NCBI GenBank assembly: GCA_029005135.1
Contig: JAQXFO010000022.1
Coordinates: 2,589-66,588 of the forward strand
DNA from: Lachnospiraceae bacterium
GTDB taxonomy: Bacteria > Bacillota > Clostridia > Lachnospirales > Lachnospiraceae
Direction of reading: 5' to 3'
Length of the DNA stretch: 64,000 nucleotides
In this document: positions 51,564-54,395 of the stretch, piece after piece
Layout of the letters: the number at the start of each line of letters is the position of its first letter
Numbering within the stretch: position 1 is the stretch's first letter
Position numbers and translations under genes: made by a program
Notes under the pieces: model-generated
What the model was told of the DNA's origin: nothing
The model's database searches: none
The model's input: the letters and a program-made list of their open reading frames with translations, nothing else

Positions 51564-52567
51564 ACCGTAATACCTGCCTCTTTGATCATGCTGACTGACC
51601 GGGTGATGGTCCCGAGGGTCTCGGGAGTGATGGACTGGGAACCGTCGAAACGGGCGTGGGACGGATCGTGGTGGACCTCCAGGAAAAGGCCGTCGGCACC
51701 GGCGCTTACCGCGGCGGCGGCCATCGGCGGCACCAGATACGCCTTCTTGACAGCCCGGCTCGGATCGACGATGACCGGAAGATGGGACAGCTTTTTCAGC
51801 ACCGGCACCGCCGTGATGTCCAGCGTCGTCCGGGTGTAGTTTTCAAAGCTGCGGATACCGCTTTCGGAGAGGATCACCCGGTCGTTGCCGCCTGCCATGA
51901 TGTATTCCGCCGCCATCAGAAATTCCTCGTAAGAGGCGGAAAAGCCGCGGGTCAGAATAACCGGCCTGTCCAGCCTGCCCAGAAGGCTCAGAAGCTGATA
52001 ATTCTGCATATTGGCGGCACTGACCAGCAGGATATCCACCTCCTCGAAGCAGGACATCTGCGCGTCGTCAGAGATCTCCGAGACCACCGGCAGGCCGGCC
52101 TTATGCCCCGCTTCCACAAGATAACGGATCCCTTCCTCCCGGAGCCCGGCAAAGGCATAGGGGGAGGTGCGCGTCATGAAGGCGCCGCCGTAGAGGAGAT
52201 CCGCCCCTTTTTCCGCTGCCGCCAGAGCGATGGTCAGGATCTGCTCCCGGGATTCCACGGCCCCCGGTCCGGCGATGACCACCGGACGTCCGCCGCCGAT
52301 TCTCACGCCGCCGACCTCGATCACCGTGTCCTCCGGATGAAACTTGCGATTCACATTTTTATAGGGCTCCTGCACACGCTTGACCTCATCGACGATGTCG
52401 AGGGCCGCGATCATGTCCTGGTCGATCGAAGCCGTATCCCCGACCAGACCCAGGATCGTCTGTCCGGTTCCCACCGTCGGCCGGACCGTGATATGCTGAT
52501 CCTCAAGCCAGGCGATCAGTCCCTCCAGCTGATCCGGATCCGGATCCTTTTTTAGAATGACGATCAT
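51560..52567 (-). CDS. aroF: 3-deoxy-7-phosphoheptulonate (DAHP) synthase, class I-beta with an N-terminal regulatory domain
   Basis: The N-terminal roughly 70-aa ferredoxin-like domain (MIVILKKDPD...) is followed by VIAGPGAVES, the KDO8P/DAHP-I-beta core and VIVDPSRA. GAAGGAG SD. Confidence 0.9.
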   Translation of the reverse strand: MIVILKKDPDPDQLEGLIAWLEDQHITVRPTVGTGQTILGLVGDTASIDQDMIAALDIVDEVKRVQEPYKNVNRKFHPEDTVIEVGGVRIGGGRPVVIAGPGAVESREQILTIALAAAEKGADLLYGGAFMTRTSPYAFAGLREEGIRYLVEAGHKAGLPVVSEISDDAQMSCFEEVDILLVSAANMQNYQLLSLLGRLDRPVILTRGFSASYEEFLMAAEYIMAGGNDRVILSESGIRSFENYTRTTLDITAVPVLKKLSHLPVIVDPSRAVKKAYLVPPMAAAAVSAGADGLFLEVHHDPSHARFDGSQSITPETLGTITRSVSMIKEAGITV

Positions 52568-52617
52568 GACTGTCTCCTTCTGCCTTCAGGGCGCCTTGGG
52601 CGCACCTGCTTTTTCAC

Positions 52618-52649
52618 AAAAAATAAAGCCCGCAGCGGTCGGCTGCGGG
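52618..52649 (-). terminator. attenuator terminator in the aroF-pheA leader
   Basis: Minus RNA forms CCCGCAGC (52649-42), loop CGACC, GCUGCGGG (52636-29), then CUUUAUUUUUU. It ends about 50 nt before the aroF ATG. Confidence 0.78.
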
Positions 52650-52686
52650 TCCCGGACGAAGTTCATAGAAGCTTCTGCACCTTTTT

Positions 52687-52767
52687 TCAGCCAACCAAAT
52701 TAGCCCTGCCGTTAAACGCAAAGCTGAAAAAGCTGAAAAAAAAGTTGCCGTGGGATCTGAAATTCAT
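52687..52767 (-). CDS. Phe-rich leader peptide MNFRSHGNFFFSFFSFAFNGRANLVG
   Basis: 26 codons, 8 of them Phe (TTT/TTC) clustered as FFFSFFSFAF. GGGAG SD (52779-75) lies 7 nt before the ATG at 52767. The TGA at 52689-87 is embedded in the antiterminator arm. Confidence 0.65.
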   Translation of the reverse strand: MNFRSHGNFFFSFFSFAFNGRANLVG

Positions 52768-52795
52768 AAAAAATCTCCCGTCTGAAGCTCATTTA

Positions 52796-52824
52796 ACGCT
52801 ATCATAACCGCTTATTTTTGTCAA
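52796..52824 (-). promoter_or_regulatory. candidate promoter TTGACA-17-TAGCGT for the aro leader
   Basis: TTGACA at 52824-52819, a 17-nt spacer, then TAGCGT at 52801-52796. Confidence 0.4.
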
Positions 52825-53024
52825 TATTTCCAAACTCTTTGCCCTCTCTGCAAAACATTTTTATTCTGCTATCTTTTTATACTCCGTTATGGTAAACTTA
52901 TGGTCAAATGCAACTCAAAACGGGCCAATTTTTTTGGTATTTTCCCTGCAAAAGCACTTTTCACCGACCGGTGCCCCGCGCCGCGGTGTTTCTAATCAGC
53001 AGCCATTCATGACGAAAGGAGGTT

Positions 53025-54395
53025 ATGATGGATCATTACAAAAAAATGTATCAGTATGCTCTGGACAAAACGGCGATAACGGTTCAGAACGATACCATTG
53101 ACAACAAGCTCTTCACCGATCTGGGTGTTTACCGCGGTCTGCGTGATGAGAAGGGCAAGGGCGTTCTGACAGGCCTGACCTCCGTCTCCCGTATCGATGC
53201 CTACAAAATCGAAAACGGACAACGTATTCCGACAGACGGTGCACTGTATTACCGTCATTACAACATTGCCGATCTGATCGACCGCTACATCGATGACGGC
53301 TTCGGCTTCGAGAACACGGCTTATCTCCTGCTCTTCGGCGAGCTGCCGACGGAAGAGCAGTCGGCGGAATTCATCAATATTCTGGCGAAGGCCCGGGACC
53401 TGCCCCAGAACTTCACCCGGGACGTCATCATGAAGGCGCCGACCCAGGATATCATGAATTCGATGATGCGGAGCATCCTGACCCTGTCCTCCTATGACAA
53501 AAATGCAGCCCGCACCGATATCTCCAACAGCATCACCCAGAGTCTCAACCTGATCGCGGTCTTCCCGATGCTGGCGGTCTATGCCTACCACGCCTTCAAT
53601 CATTACGAAAATTACGGCAGCATGTACATTCACCGTCCCTCCAAGACGTATTCGACGGCGGAGAATATCCTGAGGATGCTGCGTCCCAACAAGACCTTCA
53701 CCCCGACCGAGGCCAAGGTTCTTGACGCCTGCCTGATGCTGCACATGGAGCATGGCGGCGGTAATAACTCAACCTTCACGACCCGCGTCGTCACCTCCTC
53801 CGGTTCCGATACCTACTCCGCCATCGCGGCGGCCATGTCCTCCCTCAAGGGACCCAAGCACGGCGGTGCCAACATCAAGGTTATGGAGATGTTCAAGGAC
53901 ATCCGCGCTCACGTCAATGATCCCTATGACGAGGAAGCCATCGCCGATTATCTGGGCAAGATCCTCGACGGCGAGACCTTCGACCGCCGCGGCCTGATTT
54001 ACGGTATGGGACATGCGGTCTACACGATCTCCGATCCCCGTGAACGCATCCTGAAAAAATTTGTCCTGCAGCTGGCCGAGGAAAAGCATCTGCAGAAGGA
54101 GCTGGCCATGTATCAGAATGTCGAAAAGCTGGCGCCGCGGCTCATCGCCGAGAAACGCCACATCTACAAGGGCGTCAACCCCAACGTCGACTTCTACAGC
54201 GGCTTTGTCTACAAGATGCTGGGCATCCCGGAAGAGCTGTACACCCCGCTCTTTGCCATTGCCCGTATCGTCGGCTGGTCGGCCCACCGCCTTGAGGAAC
54301 TGGTCGGCAGCGGCAAGATCATCCGTCCGGCCTACATGAGTGTCCTGAACGTCAACAACTCCCTCGACCCGAATATGCCCGACAACGTGATCTGA
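53025..54395 (+). CDS. citrate synthase
   Basis: 456 aa. MLHMEHGGGNNSTF, GPKHGGAN and GMGHAVY carry the citrate synthase catalytic His/Asp motifs. AAAGGAGG SD. Confidence 0.92.
   Translation: MMDHYKKMYQYALDKTAITVQNDTIDNKLFTDLGVYRGLRDEKGKGVLTGLTSVSRIDAYKIENGQRIPTDGALYYRHYNIADLIDRYIDDGFGFENTAYLLLFGELPTEEQSAEFINILAKARDLPQNFTRDVIMKAPTQDIMNSMMRSILTLSSYDKNAARTDISNSITQSLNLIAVFPMLAVYAYHAFNHYENYGSMYIHRPSKTYSTAENILRMLRPNKTFTPTEAKVLDACLMLHMEHGGGNNSTFTTRVVTSSGSDTYSAIAAAMSSLKGPKHGGANIKVMEMFKDIRAHVNDPYDEEAIADYLGKILDGETFDRRGLIYGMGHAVYTISDPRERILKKFVLQLAEEKHLQKELAMYQNVEKLAPRLIAEKRHIYKGVNPNVDFYSGFVYKMLGIPEELYTPLFAIARIVGWSAHRLEELVGSGKIIRPAYMSVLNVNNSLDPNMPDNVI

Follow-up and report, generated by a model that had tools for sequence, protein, structure and literature searches.

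A predicted leader-peptide attenuator with a phenylalanine codon run upstream of aroF-pheA in a Lachnospiraceae bacterium

The DNA considered here, called the window in the following, is a stretch of 64,000 nucleotides from a Lachnospiraceae bacterium, on whose minus strand aroF, the gene for a DAHP (3-deoxy-7-phosphoheptulonate) synthase with an N-terminal ferredoxin-like regulatory domain, is followed by pheA, the gene for a prephenate dehydratase, the start of pheA overlapping the end of aroF by 4 nt. Upstream of aroF, a candidate promoter is followed by a short open reading frame (ORF) with a dense run of phenylalanine (Phe) codons and by an intrinsic terminator (Table 1), which cannot belong to the upstream gene, since that gene, encoding a citrate synthase, is divergent. 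Comparison with related leaders makes it very probable that transcription of aroF-pheA, with aroF as the first regulated gene, is attenuated here by a ribosome-mediated (leader-peptide) mechanism responsive to charged tRNA-Phe.

Layout and pairing possibilities of the aroF leader

The original prediction for this locus had listed a promoter (TTGACA-17-TAGCGT), a GGGAG Shine-Dalgarno (SD) sequence 7 nt before the leader ATG, a 26-codon ORF with eight Phe codons and three regions able to pair with one another, and all of these elements, including the UGA inside region 2, were found in place on the minus strand. The Phe codons occupy positions 3, 9-11, 13, 14, 16 and 18 of the leader, seven of them thus falling within codons 9-18. 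The six frames of the window contain 2449 stop-to-stop segments that are 10 aa or longer, and among these the leader ORF is the sole one with 7 Phe in 10 residues and is therefore not a chance product of composition; the next-best density, 5 Phe in 10 residues, is reached by three segments. A search of the window for other mini-ORFs biased toward His, Trp, Thr, Leu or further amino acids gave no additional leader-like candidate. The T-run just 5' of the leader ATG (region 52768-52792, minus strand) differs by strain, with six T in the window and five in two other loci, L161 and L162, in which the shorter run places the upstream ATG (52792 in the window) in the leader frame and would add MSFRREIF N-terminally; in the window this ATG opens instead a separate 26-aa frame (52792-52712).

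Table 1. Features at the aroF locus in window coordinates (MFE, minimum free energy; HMM, hidden Markov model)
Feature	Position	Strand	Sequence or content	Basis
-35 hexamer	52824-52819	minus	TTGACA	read directly; putative promoter element
Promoter spacer	52818-52802	minus	17 nt	read directly
Extended -10 element	52804-52796	minus	TGATAGCGT, TGn (TGA) + TAGCGT	read directly
-10 hexamer	52801-52796	minus	TAGCGT	read directly
Leader SD	52779-52775	minus	GGGAG, 7 nt 5' of leader ATG (52767)	read directly
Leader peptide ORF	52767-52687	minus	26 codons + UGA, MNFRSHGNFFFSFFSFAFNGRANLVG	read directly and ORF list
P1a 5' strand (region 1, outer)	52747-52731	minus	CAACUUUUUUUUCAGCU, pairs with 3' part of region 2	MFE fold
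Regulatory Phe run, codons 9-18	52743-52714	minus	UUU UUU UUC agc UUU UUC agc UUU gcg UUU, 7 Phe	
Region 1 repeat, two copies	52740-52732 and 52731-52723	minus	UUUUUCAGC	read directly
P1b 5' strand (region 1, inner)	52725-52718	minus	AGCUUUGC	MFE fold and clade pairing
P1b 3' strand	52709-52702	minus	GCAGGGCU, the family-wide nAAGGnn motif	fold and HMM alignment
Region 2, core	52696-52683	minus	GGUUGGCUGAAAAA	read directly
Region 2, full	52696-52678	minus	GGUUGGCUGAAAAAAGGUG, contains leader UGA	read directly and fold
Region 2, 5' half	52696-52688	minus	GGUUGGCUG, pairs with region 3	
Leader stop codon	52689-52687	minus	UGA, inside region 2	
Intrinsic terminator	52649-52618	minus	CCCGCAGC-CGACC-GCUGCGGG + CUUUAUUUUUU	independent terminator scan
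Terminator hairpin proper	52649-52629	minus	8-bp stem with 7 G-C pairs, 5-nt loop, then U-tract	
Region 3	52645-52637	minus	CAGCCGACC, last 4 nt of terminator 5' arm + loop	9-bp antiterminator with region 2
Further hairpin	52608-52587	minus	CAGGUGCGCC-CAA-GGCGCCCUG, G+C-rich	
aroF SD	52581-52574	minus		
aroF, DAHP synthase	52567-51560	minus		NCBIfam NF006421, 385.5 bits (cut-off 335); Pfam DAHP_snth_FXD, DAHP_synth_1
pheA, prephenate dehydratase	51563-50700	minus		NCBIfam NF008865, E = 2.8e-59, 200.6 bits (just under cut-off 219); Pfam PDT
glf, UDP-galactopyranose mutase	50681-49572	minus	between pheA and aminotransferase	
PLP (pyridoxal phosphate)-dependent aminotransferase	49550-48264	minus	3' of glf	
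Citrate synthase	53025-54395	plus	divergent, upstream	

The pairings claimed for the three regions and the terminator hold when the leader RNA is folded. The unconstrained MFE structure of 52800-52580 contains both the 1:2 hairpin, here P1, made of an outer helix P1a and an inner helix P1b (52748-52676, -26.7 kcal/mol), and the terminator hairpin (-16.5 kcal/mol). Region 2 is divided between two uses, its 5' half pairing with region 3 and its 3' half with region 1, and the 2:3 helix comprises nine pairs including one G.U, with a duplex energy of -17.9 kcal/mol. With region 1 removed and the terminator 3' arm absent (52703-52637), the MFE structure is the 9-bp antiterminator at -20.6 kcal/mol; an RNA ending at 52637 and folded without a ribosome contains P1, and its region 3 is left essentially unpaired.

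The geometry agrees with these folds. A ribosome with its A site on codons 9-18 has a footprint that ends at most at about 52704, so that region 2, which begins at 52696, would be left free, and a ribosome at the UGA covers region 2. The mutually exclusive 1:2, 2:3 and 3:4 pairings are in this way placed as classical ribosome-mediated attenuation requires. The terminator was called independently by a terminator scan at the position first proposed; its distance to the aroF SD had been put at about 50 nt and had to be revised to about 37 nt, measured from the end of the U-tract, 50 nt being the distance from the end of the leader to the aroF ATG.

Conservation and covariation in related aroF leaders

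An aroF protein identical to that of the window is found on 10 metagenome contigs, whose leaders hardly differ from that of the window. The next most similar DAHP synthases share 73% (L167), 65% (L168) and 63% (L169) identity with it; they were found via the protein database, scans of genomes and metagenomes for aroF having given 62% identity at most, and the contigs of the two closer relatives stop before the gene 3' of aroF. All three loci carry homologous Phe-rich leaders, with the peptides, each read to its stop codon, MIKNHSDNFFFSFFNFFNFAFSGKVYLVG (C-terminal part NFFFSFFNFFNFAFSGKVYLVG) in L167, MKTDTSNNYFFGFTGFAFYGAGLIRIG (NNYFFGFTGFAFYGAGLIRIG) in L168 and MKNTVTKNFFFGFYGFAFNKARHIRVG (KNFFFGFYGFAFNKARHIRVG) in L169. 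The segment GGCUGAAAA with the UGA inside is invariant throughout this clade, the terminator recurs as CCCGCAG...CUGCGGG followed by a U-tract, and the proposed promoter layout is repeated as TTGACA, a 17-nt spacer and TGnTAnnnT at the spacing seen in the window, the extended -10 elements being TGATACGTT (L167), TGATAGGTT (L168) and TGGTAATTT (L169). The antiterminator keeps 9/9 pairs in all five clade sequences, with G-C/G.U or U-A/U.G exchanges at four positions. P1a likewise remains paired in L165 and L167-L169, where the changes are limited to wobbles, along with a few mismatches in a fixed alignment register.

The 5' ends of these leaders are of two kinds. In the window and L167 the 5' untranslated region is about 28-30 nt long and contains GGAG. 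In L168 (~2870-2885) and L169 (~290-300) the -10 hexamer ends just 9 nt 5' of the leader ATG and an SD is absent, and because of this arrangement the leader of these two loci may be translated from leaderless or nearly leaderless mRNA.

A wider sample was assembled from GTDB genomes and metagenomes as 160 fetched loci (L001-L160) whose DAHP synthases are 50-62% identical to the window's, mostly from metagenome-assembled genomes (MAGs) labelled Clostridia, Oscillospiraceae, Acutalibacteraceae, Lachnospiraceae or Ruminococcus. When the regions upstream of aroF were filtered for mini-ORFs with an ATG start, 10-45 aa and at least six Phe or Tyr in 10 residues, 116 of 153 distinct regions contained one, against a mean of 1.05 (maximum 3) in dinucleotide shuffles and 2 in reverse complements; an initial screen of 158 regions gave 121 with such an ORF, of which 112 were followed by a terminator as well. 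An SD-like motif lies 5-16 nt 5' of the in-frame ATG in 79 of 90 unique leaders (26% for background ATGs). With about three quarters of the 153 loci carrying it, a leader of this kind appears to be the normal arrangement before aroF in Clostridia of the gut and rumen. Close aroF homologues also occur in MAGs labelled Victivallales, Spirochaetia and Alloprevotella (L041, L042, L050, L061), in which no Phe/Tyr leader passed the mini-ORF filter; they could be due to binning errors or to horizontal transfer.

The RNA plan shared by the family reads ...UUUGCAGCUGAAU-ACUUUUACUUU-AGCUUUACC-(loop)-GGUAAGGCU-UAUUUG-GGUUUGGCUGC...(spacer)...terminator, or, as a profile, the run, AGCUUUnCC, a loop, GGnAAGGCU, UUUG and GUUGGCUG. 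The Phe/Tyr run contains the 5' strand of the inner helix P1b (AGCUUUnCC / GGnAAGGCU) and is enclosed by the outer helix P1a (GCAGCUGAAU / GUUUGGCUGC); the strand GUUUGGCUGC is complementary as well to the end of the terminator 5' arm and its loop (GCAGCCAAAC). Within the family, region 2 falls into classes that differ in length and register, and a CCAGGGCUUUUAC...AGCGCUGG variant is seen in some loci labelled Lachnospiraceae, L040 and L068 among them.

When 53 of these distant leaders (alignment A1), none from the window clade, were made into an HMM, nhmmer gave a single match on both strands of the window (128 kb), at 52745-52682 of the minus strand (E = 3.3e-5, 19.5 bits). In this match the Phe run, AGCUUU...GGCAGGGCU and UUUGGUUGGCUGAAAA correspond to the family consensus, the Phe run of the window coming to lie on the Phe/Tyr run of the family. 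Of 157 loci, 95 have a match to the model on the coding strand no more than 450 nt 5' of aroF; elsewhere in 1.8 Mb it matches in only 2 places. The window element lies upstream of aroF on the same strand, has the Phe-rich ORF with a ribosome-binding site, matches the profile and possesses P1 and the terminator/antiterminator pair, and by these traits it belongs to a family of Phe/Tyr aroF leaders that is widespread in Clostridia.

The conservation of the leader might also be that of a peptide. If the mini-ORF were an independent small gene for a functional hydrophobic Phe-rich peptide, with the hairpin as its terminator, and if aroF-pheA were read from another promoter or by leaky read-through, the promoter-like site, the SD and the strong terminator of the ORF would be expected, and the peptide motif, an F/Y run followed by G-K/R-A, does look conserved. 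The motifs A-A-E-Y before the run and G-K-A after it coincide, however, with strands of the RNA helices: the G-K-A codons (GGUAAGGCU) are the 3' strand of P1b, and the AAGGCU motif, which carries the CUUU/AAGG core of that helix, lies inside the ORF in long leaders and past the stop in short ones such as L044 (MKSIFVFAYYYYFTMDS, then the stop; compare L044:2811-2900 and L004:2804-2896), or is kept out of frame. Since the same core falls past the stop in short leaders, the conserved-looking peptide motif reflects conservation at the RNA level. Peptide length (16 to 45 aa) and C-termini vary widely, the element is nearly confined to the stretch just 5' of aroF, in the orientation of that gene (the 95 matches against 2 elsewhere), and the 50 nt from the U-tract to the aroF ATG offer neither room nor signal for an aroF promoter. 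The antiterminator, moreover, covaries, and a plain terminator needs none. An independent peptide gene is accordingly a very improbable explanation.

Another way of misjudging the element would be to have taken a T-box, another tRNA-sensing leader or a known Bacillota-type leader for a leader-peptide attenuator, T-boxes being the usual control of aromatic amino-acid genes in Bacillota (PMC2965389). This is almost certainly not the case. Rfam, including its T-box, Phe_leader and other leader families, has no match at E <= 10 in 52300-53100, and across the whole 64-kb window nothing reaches the gathering score, be it riboswitch, T-box, tRNA-like or other catalogued RNA. Ten typical family loci have no match to Rfam 15 at E <= 0.1, and no T-box at gathering score was found in 20 further aroF loci that fail the leader filter. 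Only about 140 nt separate the leader ATG from the terminator, and T-box sequence or structure went undetected there in all of these searches.

The leader-peptide attenuator also calls for helices that are maintained as alternatives, and covariation was measured in alignments A1 (53 leaders), A2 (34 leaders including the window) and A4 (24 leaders), with 500 shuffles for each test; percentages in the following are cells paired, and the second value of each comparison is that of the shuffles. In A2 the antiterminator is paired at 84.5% (24-45% when the partner is slid), with 26 both-side changes versus 9.5 +/- 3.4 and a covariation score of 0.257 versus 0.174, and the terminator at 94.3% (partner slid 32-54%), with 51 versus 13.6 both-side changes and a score of 0.436 versus 0.212. 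P1b is paired at 90.5% in A1 (partner slid 32-59%; both-side changes 58 versus 20.4; score 0.432 versus 0.241), and P1a and P1b together at 77.9% in A4 (partner slid 31-52%; both-side changes 31 versus 12.3; score 0.254 versus 0.159). In all four helix tests 0/500 shuffles attained the observed pairing, both-side changes or covariation score. Alignment columns 125-126, within region 3, show covariation with each of the two strands they can pair with, region 2 (GG/CC, CA/UG, UG/CA etc.) and the terminator 3' arm, a pattern that would be expected of mutually exclusive helices. RNAalifold recovers P1b unaided, with 5/8 pairs compensated. In an alignment-free comparison of 96 unique leaders, the best 2:3 duplex beats dinucleotide shuffles with a mean z of -1.95, 49 leaders having p <= 0.05 and 26 the lowest attainable p of about 0.01. 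The search of related genomes for Phe-run mini-ORFs with compensatory helix changes, recommended when the locus was first described, has therefore yielded leaders in L167-L169 and in the wider family and covariation in all three helix classes.

Codon content, proposed mechanism and points against it

The gene after aroF was classified by BLAST, locus by locus, and compared with the Phe fraction among the Phe and Tyr codons of the leader, F/(F+Y). Its mean is 0.50 at the 80 loci with aroF-tyrA, 0.69 at the 8 loci with aroF-aroB and 0.98 at the 7 loci with aroF-pheA, which belong to the window species and L169; the run of the window itself has 7 Phe and 0 Tyr, against a family mean of about 50% Tyr. 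Across the family the Phe:Tyr ratio spans mostly Tyr to Phe only, and Tyr-dominant leaders exist (L054, L150, L152), e.g. MNTKAFATGYRYYCLTAYYYGR... and MNSMITVYNYYYFYFEESIS. A codon ratio that follows the downstream gene is a prediction of a codon-reading sensor.

The same ratio bears on the possibility that the leader RNA acts as a sensor to which a protein or small ligand binds. As with TRAP, PyrR or a riboswitch, this factor would decide whether the antiterminator or the terminator forms, and the Phe ORF would be a by-product of a U-rich structured RNA. The most conserved motif of the family is indeed the RNA-level CUUU/AAGG core of P1b, present in the ORF or past its stop, L168 and L169 are without a clear SD before the leader ATG, and equilibrium folding itself does not switch. 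A ligand-binding fold offers, on the other hand, no reason for the Phe:Tyr ratio to follow the downstream gene, nor for helix sequences that vary freely while the codon identity of the run stays. The in-frame, ATG-started, dense Phe/Tyr ORF in 116 of 153 regions, compared with about 1 in shuffles, and the SD-like motif in 79 of 90 leaders, compared with 26% in the background, likewise argue for translation, and no known riboswitch or protein-binding leader family matches in Rfam. A bound sensor of this type is therefore improbable.

Attenuation by a translating ribosome, with a stall that frees region 2 and a ribosome at the UGA that covers it, had been put forward for this locus from the outset, and it is supported by the homologous leaders, the profile match, the covariation and the match of codons to operon. 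The sequences show the elements themselves and that relatives keep them, covariation in each of the three helix classes and the agreement of leader codons with operon content. Transcription would probably start about 7 nt 3' of the extended -10 element, near 52789, and the 26-codon leader would be translated while RNA polymerase moves on. When Phe is scarce, the ribosome would stall in the seven-Phe run and its footprint cover region 1, the 5' strands of P1; the 5' half of region 2 would then stay single-stranded and pair with region 3 once this is transcribed. Because region 3 comprises half of the terminator 5' arm and the loop, the terminator cannot form when 2:3 is paired, and polymerase would read through into aroF-pheA. 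When Phe is plentiful, the ribosome would reach the UGA inside region 2 and occlude it, and when the leader is not translated, region 1 would pair with region 2 in P1; in both situations region 3 would be free, the terminator would form and a leader RNA of about 170 nt would end there.

Several observations weigh against this interpretation or limit it. The -10 hexamer is weak and, since TAGCGT agrees with the consensus TATAAT at just 3 of 6 positions, the promoter scan of the window made no call for the leader. The clade of the window consists of four species only, and its helix changes are one-sided, with no fully compensatory pairs. Taken alone, the window duplexes are not significant: 2:3 has -16.3 kcal/mol versus -12.6 kcal/mol in shuffles (p ~0.08), and 1:2 reaches p ~0.2 against dinucleotide shuffles, a modest value because the U-runs of the shuffles still pair with A-runs; the support for both duplexes comes from their conservation in relatives. 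P1a is the weakest element, as it is only 65.7% paired in the wider family (A4), compared with 91% for P1b, and its 5' partner in the window is a U-run, the Phe/Ser stretch UUUUUCAGC, most relatives using GCAGCUGAAU before the run.

A more general objection comes from folding at equilibrium. When a 28-nt footprint was forced unpaired on each Phe/Tyr codon or on the stop and the pair probability of the terminator was scored, the complete RNA of the window formed the terminator in every simulated ribosome state, with a probability of 0.83-1.0, and over 96 leaders the terminator prevailed in nearly all states, with means of 0.96 free, 0.93 stalled and 0.96 at the stop. As the terminator wins at equilibrium, the model leans on co-transcriptional kinetics, in which 2:3 pairs before the 3' arm exists, and an equilibrium method is blind to such a kinetic switch. 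A simulation of nascent RNA stopped before the 3' arm was noisy, G+C-rich 5' arms being paired about equally in shuffles, and RNAduplex against shuffles together with column-wise covariation was used in its place. It also counts against the model that several of its parts are ones that we infer: where transcription starts, that it ends prematurely, that the leader is translated and the ribosome stalls on it, the kinetic order in which the helices fold, and a response to Phe.

The link between Phe-only codons and pheA comes from a single clade, in which the downstream gene is known for two species only, the window's and L169, and it is therefore suggestive only. The sole other locus with a pheA-type gene after aroF, L028, has no intergenic region upstream of aroF and thus gives no independent test. 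It is an evenly balanced question whether an ancestral dual Phe/Tyr aroF leader was retuned to Phe only through single-base Tyr-to-Phe changes (UAY to UUY), jointly with three other changes: pheA taking the place of tyrA behind aroF, the region 1 strand moving into the Phe run and the stop codon coming to lie within region 2. The ancestral type would be the one in which GCAGCUGAAU pairs with GUUUGGCUGC and which precedes aroF-tyrA, and L168 and L169, with one or two Tyr codons left, would be intermediates. Were this history true, the codon composition of the leader could predict across the family which end product limits each operon.

Further genes follow the attenuated pair. The genes pheA, glf and the aminotransferase gene lie on one strand with gaps of 18-21 nt, and for this reason the cell-wall sugar gene glf may be co-transcribed with the Phe-pathway genes under the attenuator. 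Between the U-tract of the attenuator and the aroF SD lies a further G+C-rich hairpin (Table 1), seen in the same species (L165) only and not conserved in L167-L169, which might stabilise the mRNA or mark a processing site.

Relation to known leader systems

Leader-peptide attenuation in Bacillota is not new, and the novelty originally suggested for the locus could not be upheld. Some attenuators in low-GC Gram-positives were reportedly predicted by Vitreschak and colleagues in 2004, and a Leu/Phe leader in Lactococcus is said to have been described by Weinberg and colleagues in 2010. Predictions of Firmicutes leader-peptide attenuators and of Phe/Tyr aroF upstream ORFs (uORFs) date from 2010, 2019 and 2021. 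The window element is thus not a first for Bacillota and is a member of an already predicted family with its specificity shifted to Phe only.

T-box leaders of Phe/Tyr genes in Bacillota do the same job in the same phylum, antitermination in response to aminoacyl-tRNA supply, but a T-box binds uncharged tRNA directly and does not need translation, and none is detectable at the window locus. "Regular" leader peptides in Firmicutes were described with the His leader of the Bacillus hisS paralogue/hisZ (Naville and Gautheret, 2010; PMC2965389), which resembles the window element as an amino-acid-specific leader-peptide attenuator standing in place of a T-box and differs from it in amino acid, in genes and in the absence of any sequence relationship. 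Closer in content is uORFC-13-1, a Phe uORF upstream of a terminator and aroF in Acholeplasma for which ribosome-mediated attenuation was proposed (Brewer et al., 2021; RNA Biol 18:2417, PMC8632094). Like the window element, it places a Phe-codon uORF directly 5' of an intrinsic terminator and aroF in a Bacillota-related lineage; unlike it, it is known from 24 representatives in Acholeplasma and environmental sequences only, and by its description its U-run codes for at least one Phe and not for a dense run of seven.

The closest relatives were reported among the "aromatic amino acid attenuator" candidates uORF-12 and uORF-13, found from Clostridium novyi and proposed to act like the trp attenuator (Stav et al., 2019; BMC Microbiol 19:66, PMC6429828). 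The 1258 examples of uORF-12 lie mostly upstream of transporters. The 336 examples of uORF-13 (seed in C. novyi NC_008593.1, 2309418-2308872) come from Clostridiales, Thermoanaerobacterales, Bacillales, Negativicutes and metagenomes, about half of them upstream of aroF, often with tyrA next, and consist of a short ORF, whose conserved F-Y-F consensus occupies the loop closed by stem P1, and a terminator stem after it (PMC6429828, Fig. 6b). The aroF family assembled here shares the described traits and, by its likeness to the published description, we infer it to be uORF-13. No Rfam 15 match to uORF-12, uORF-13, uORFC-13-1 or the Firmicutes His-leader motifs was obtained on typical family loci, and uORF-13 is judged from this lack of matches to be absent from Rfam 15.

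The searchable literature yielded no experimental test of the predicted uORF-12 and uORF-13 or of the Acholeplasma aroF uORF, and nothing relevant in Term-seq work on C. difficile aroF, which makes the window element a good, simple candidate for a first test of the class. For Clostridia-type Bacillota, in which T-boxes are the usual assumption, it would be a clean and well-supported example of classical attenuation by a leader peptide. A Phe:Tyr codon ratio that follows operon content would amount to a readable code that could aid the annotation of aromatic amino-acid regulation in uncultured gut bacteria, and such leaders could provide compact, portable Phe- or Tyr-responsive control parts.

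With the pheL leader of E. coli (Rfam Phe_leader, PMC3082878), to whose textbook logic the original prediction had likened the element, the window leader has in common a short ORF with a Phe run, the 1:2/2:3/3:4 pairings, an intrinsic terminator and a downstream prephenate dehydratase gene. The likeness stands for the logic but not for descent: there is no detectable homology, no Rfam leader family matching at E <= 10, and the window operon starts with aroF, not pheA. Because the window element derives from the Clostridia Phe/Tyr leader family, its resemblance to pheL is convergent. Within that family, most members of which have GCAGCUGAAU before the run and aroF-tyrA behind the leader, it is set apart by its Phe-only codons, by its association with pheA, by the outer region 1 strand that is formed by the Phe run itself and by the stop codon inside region 2.

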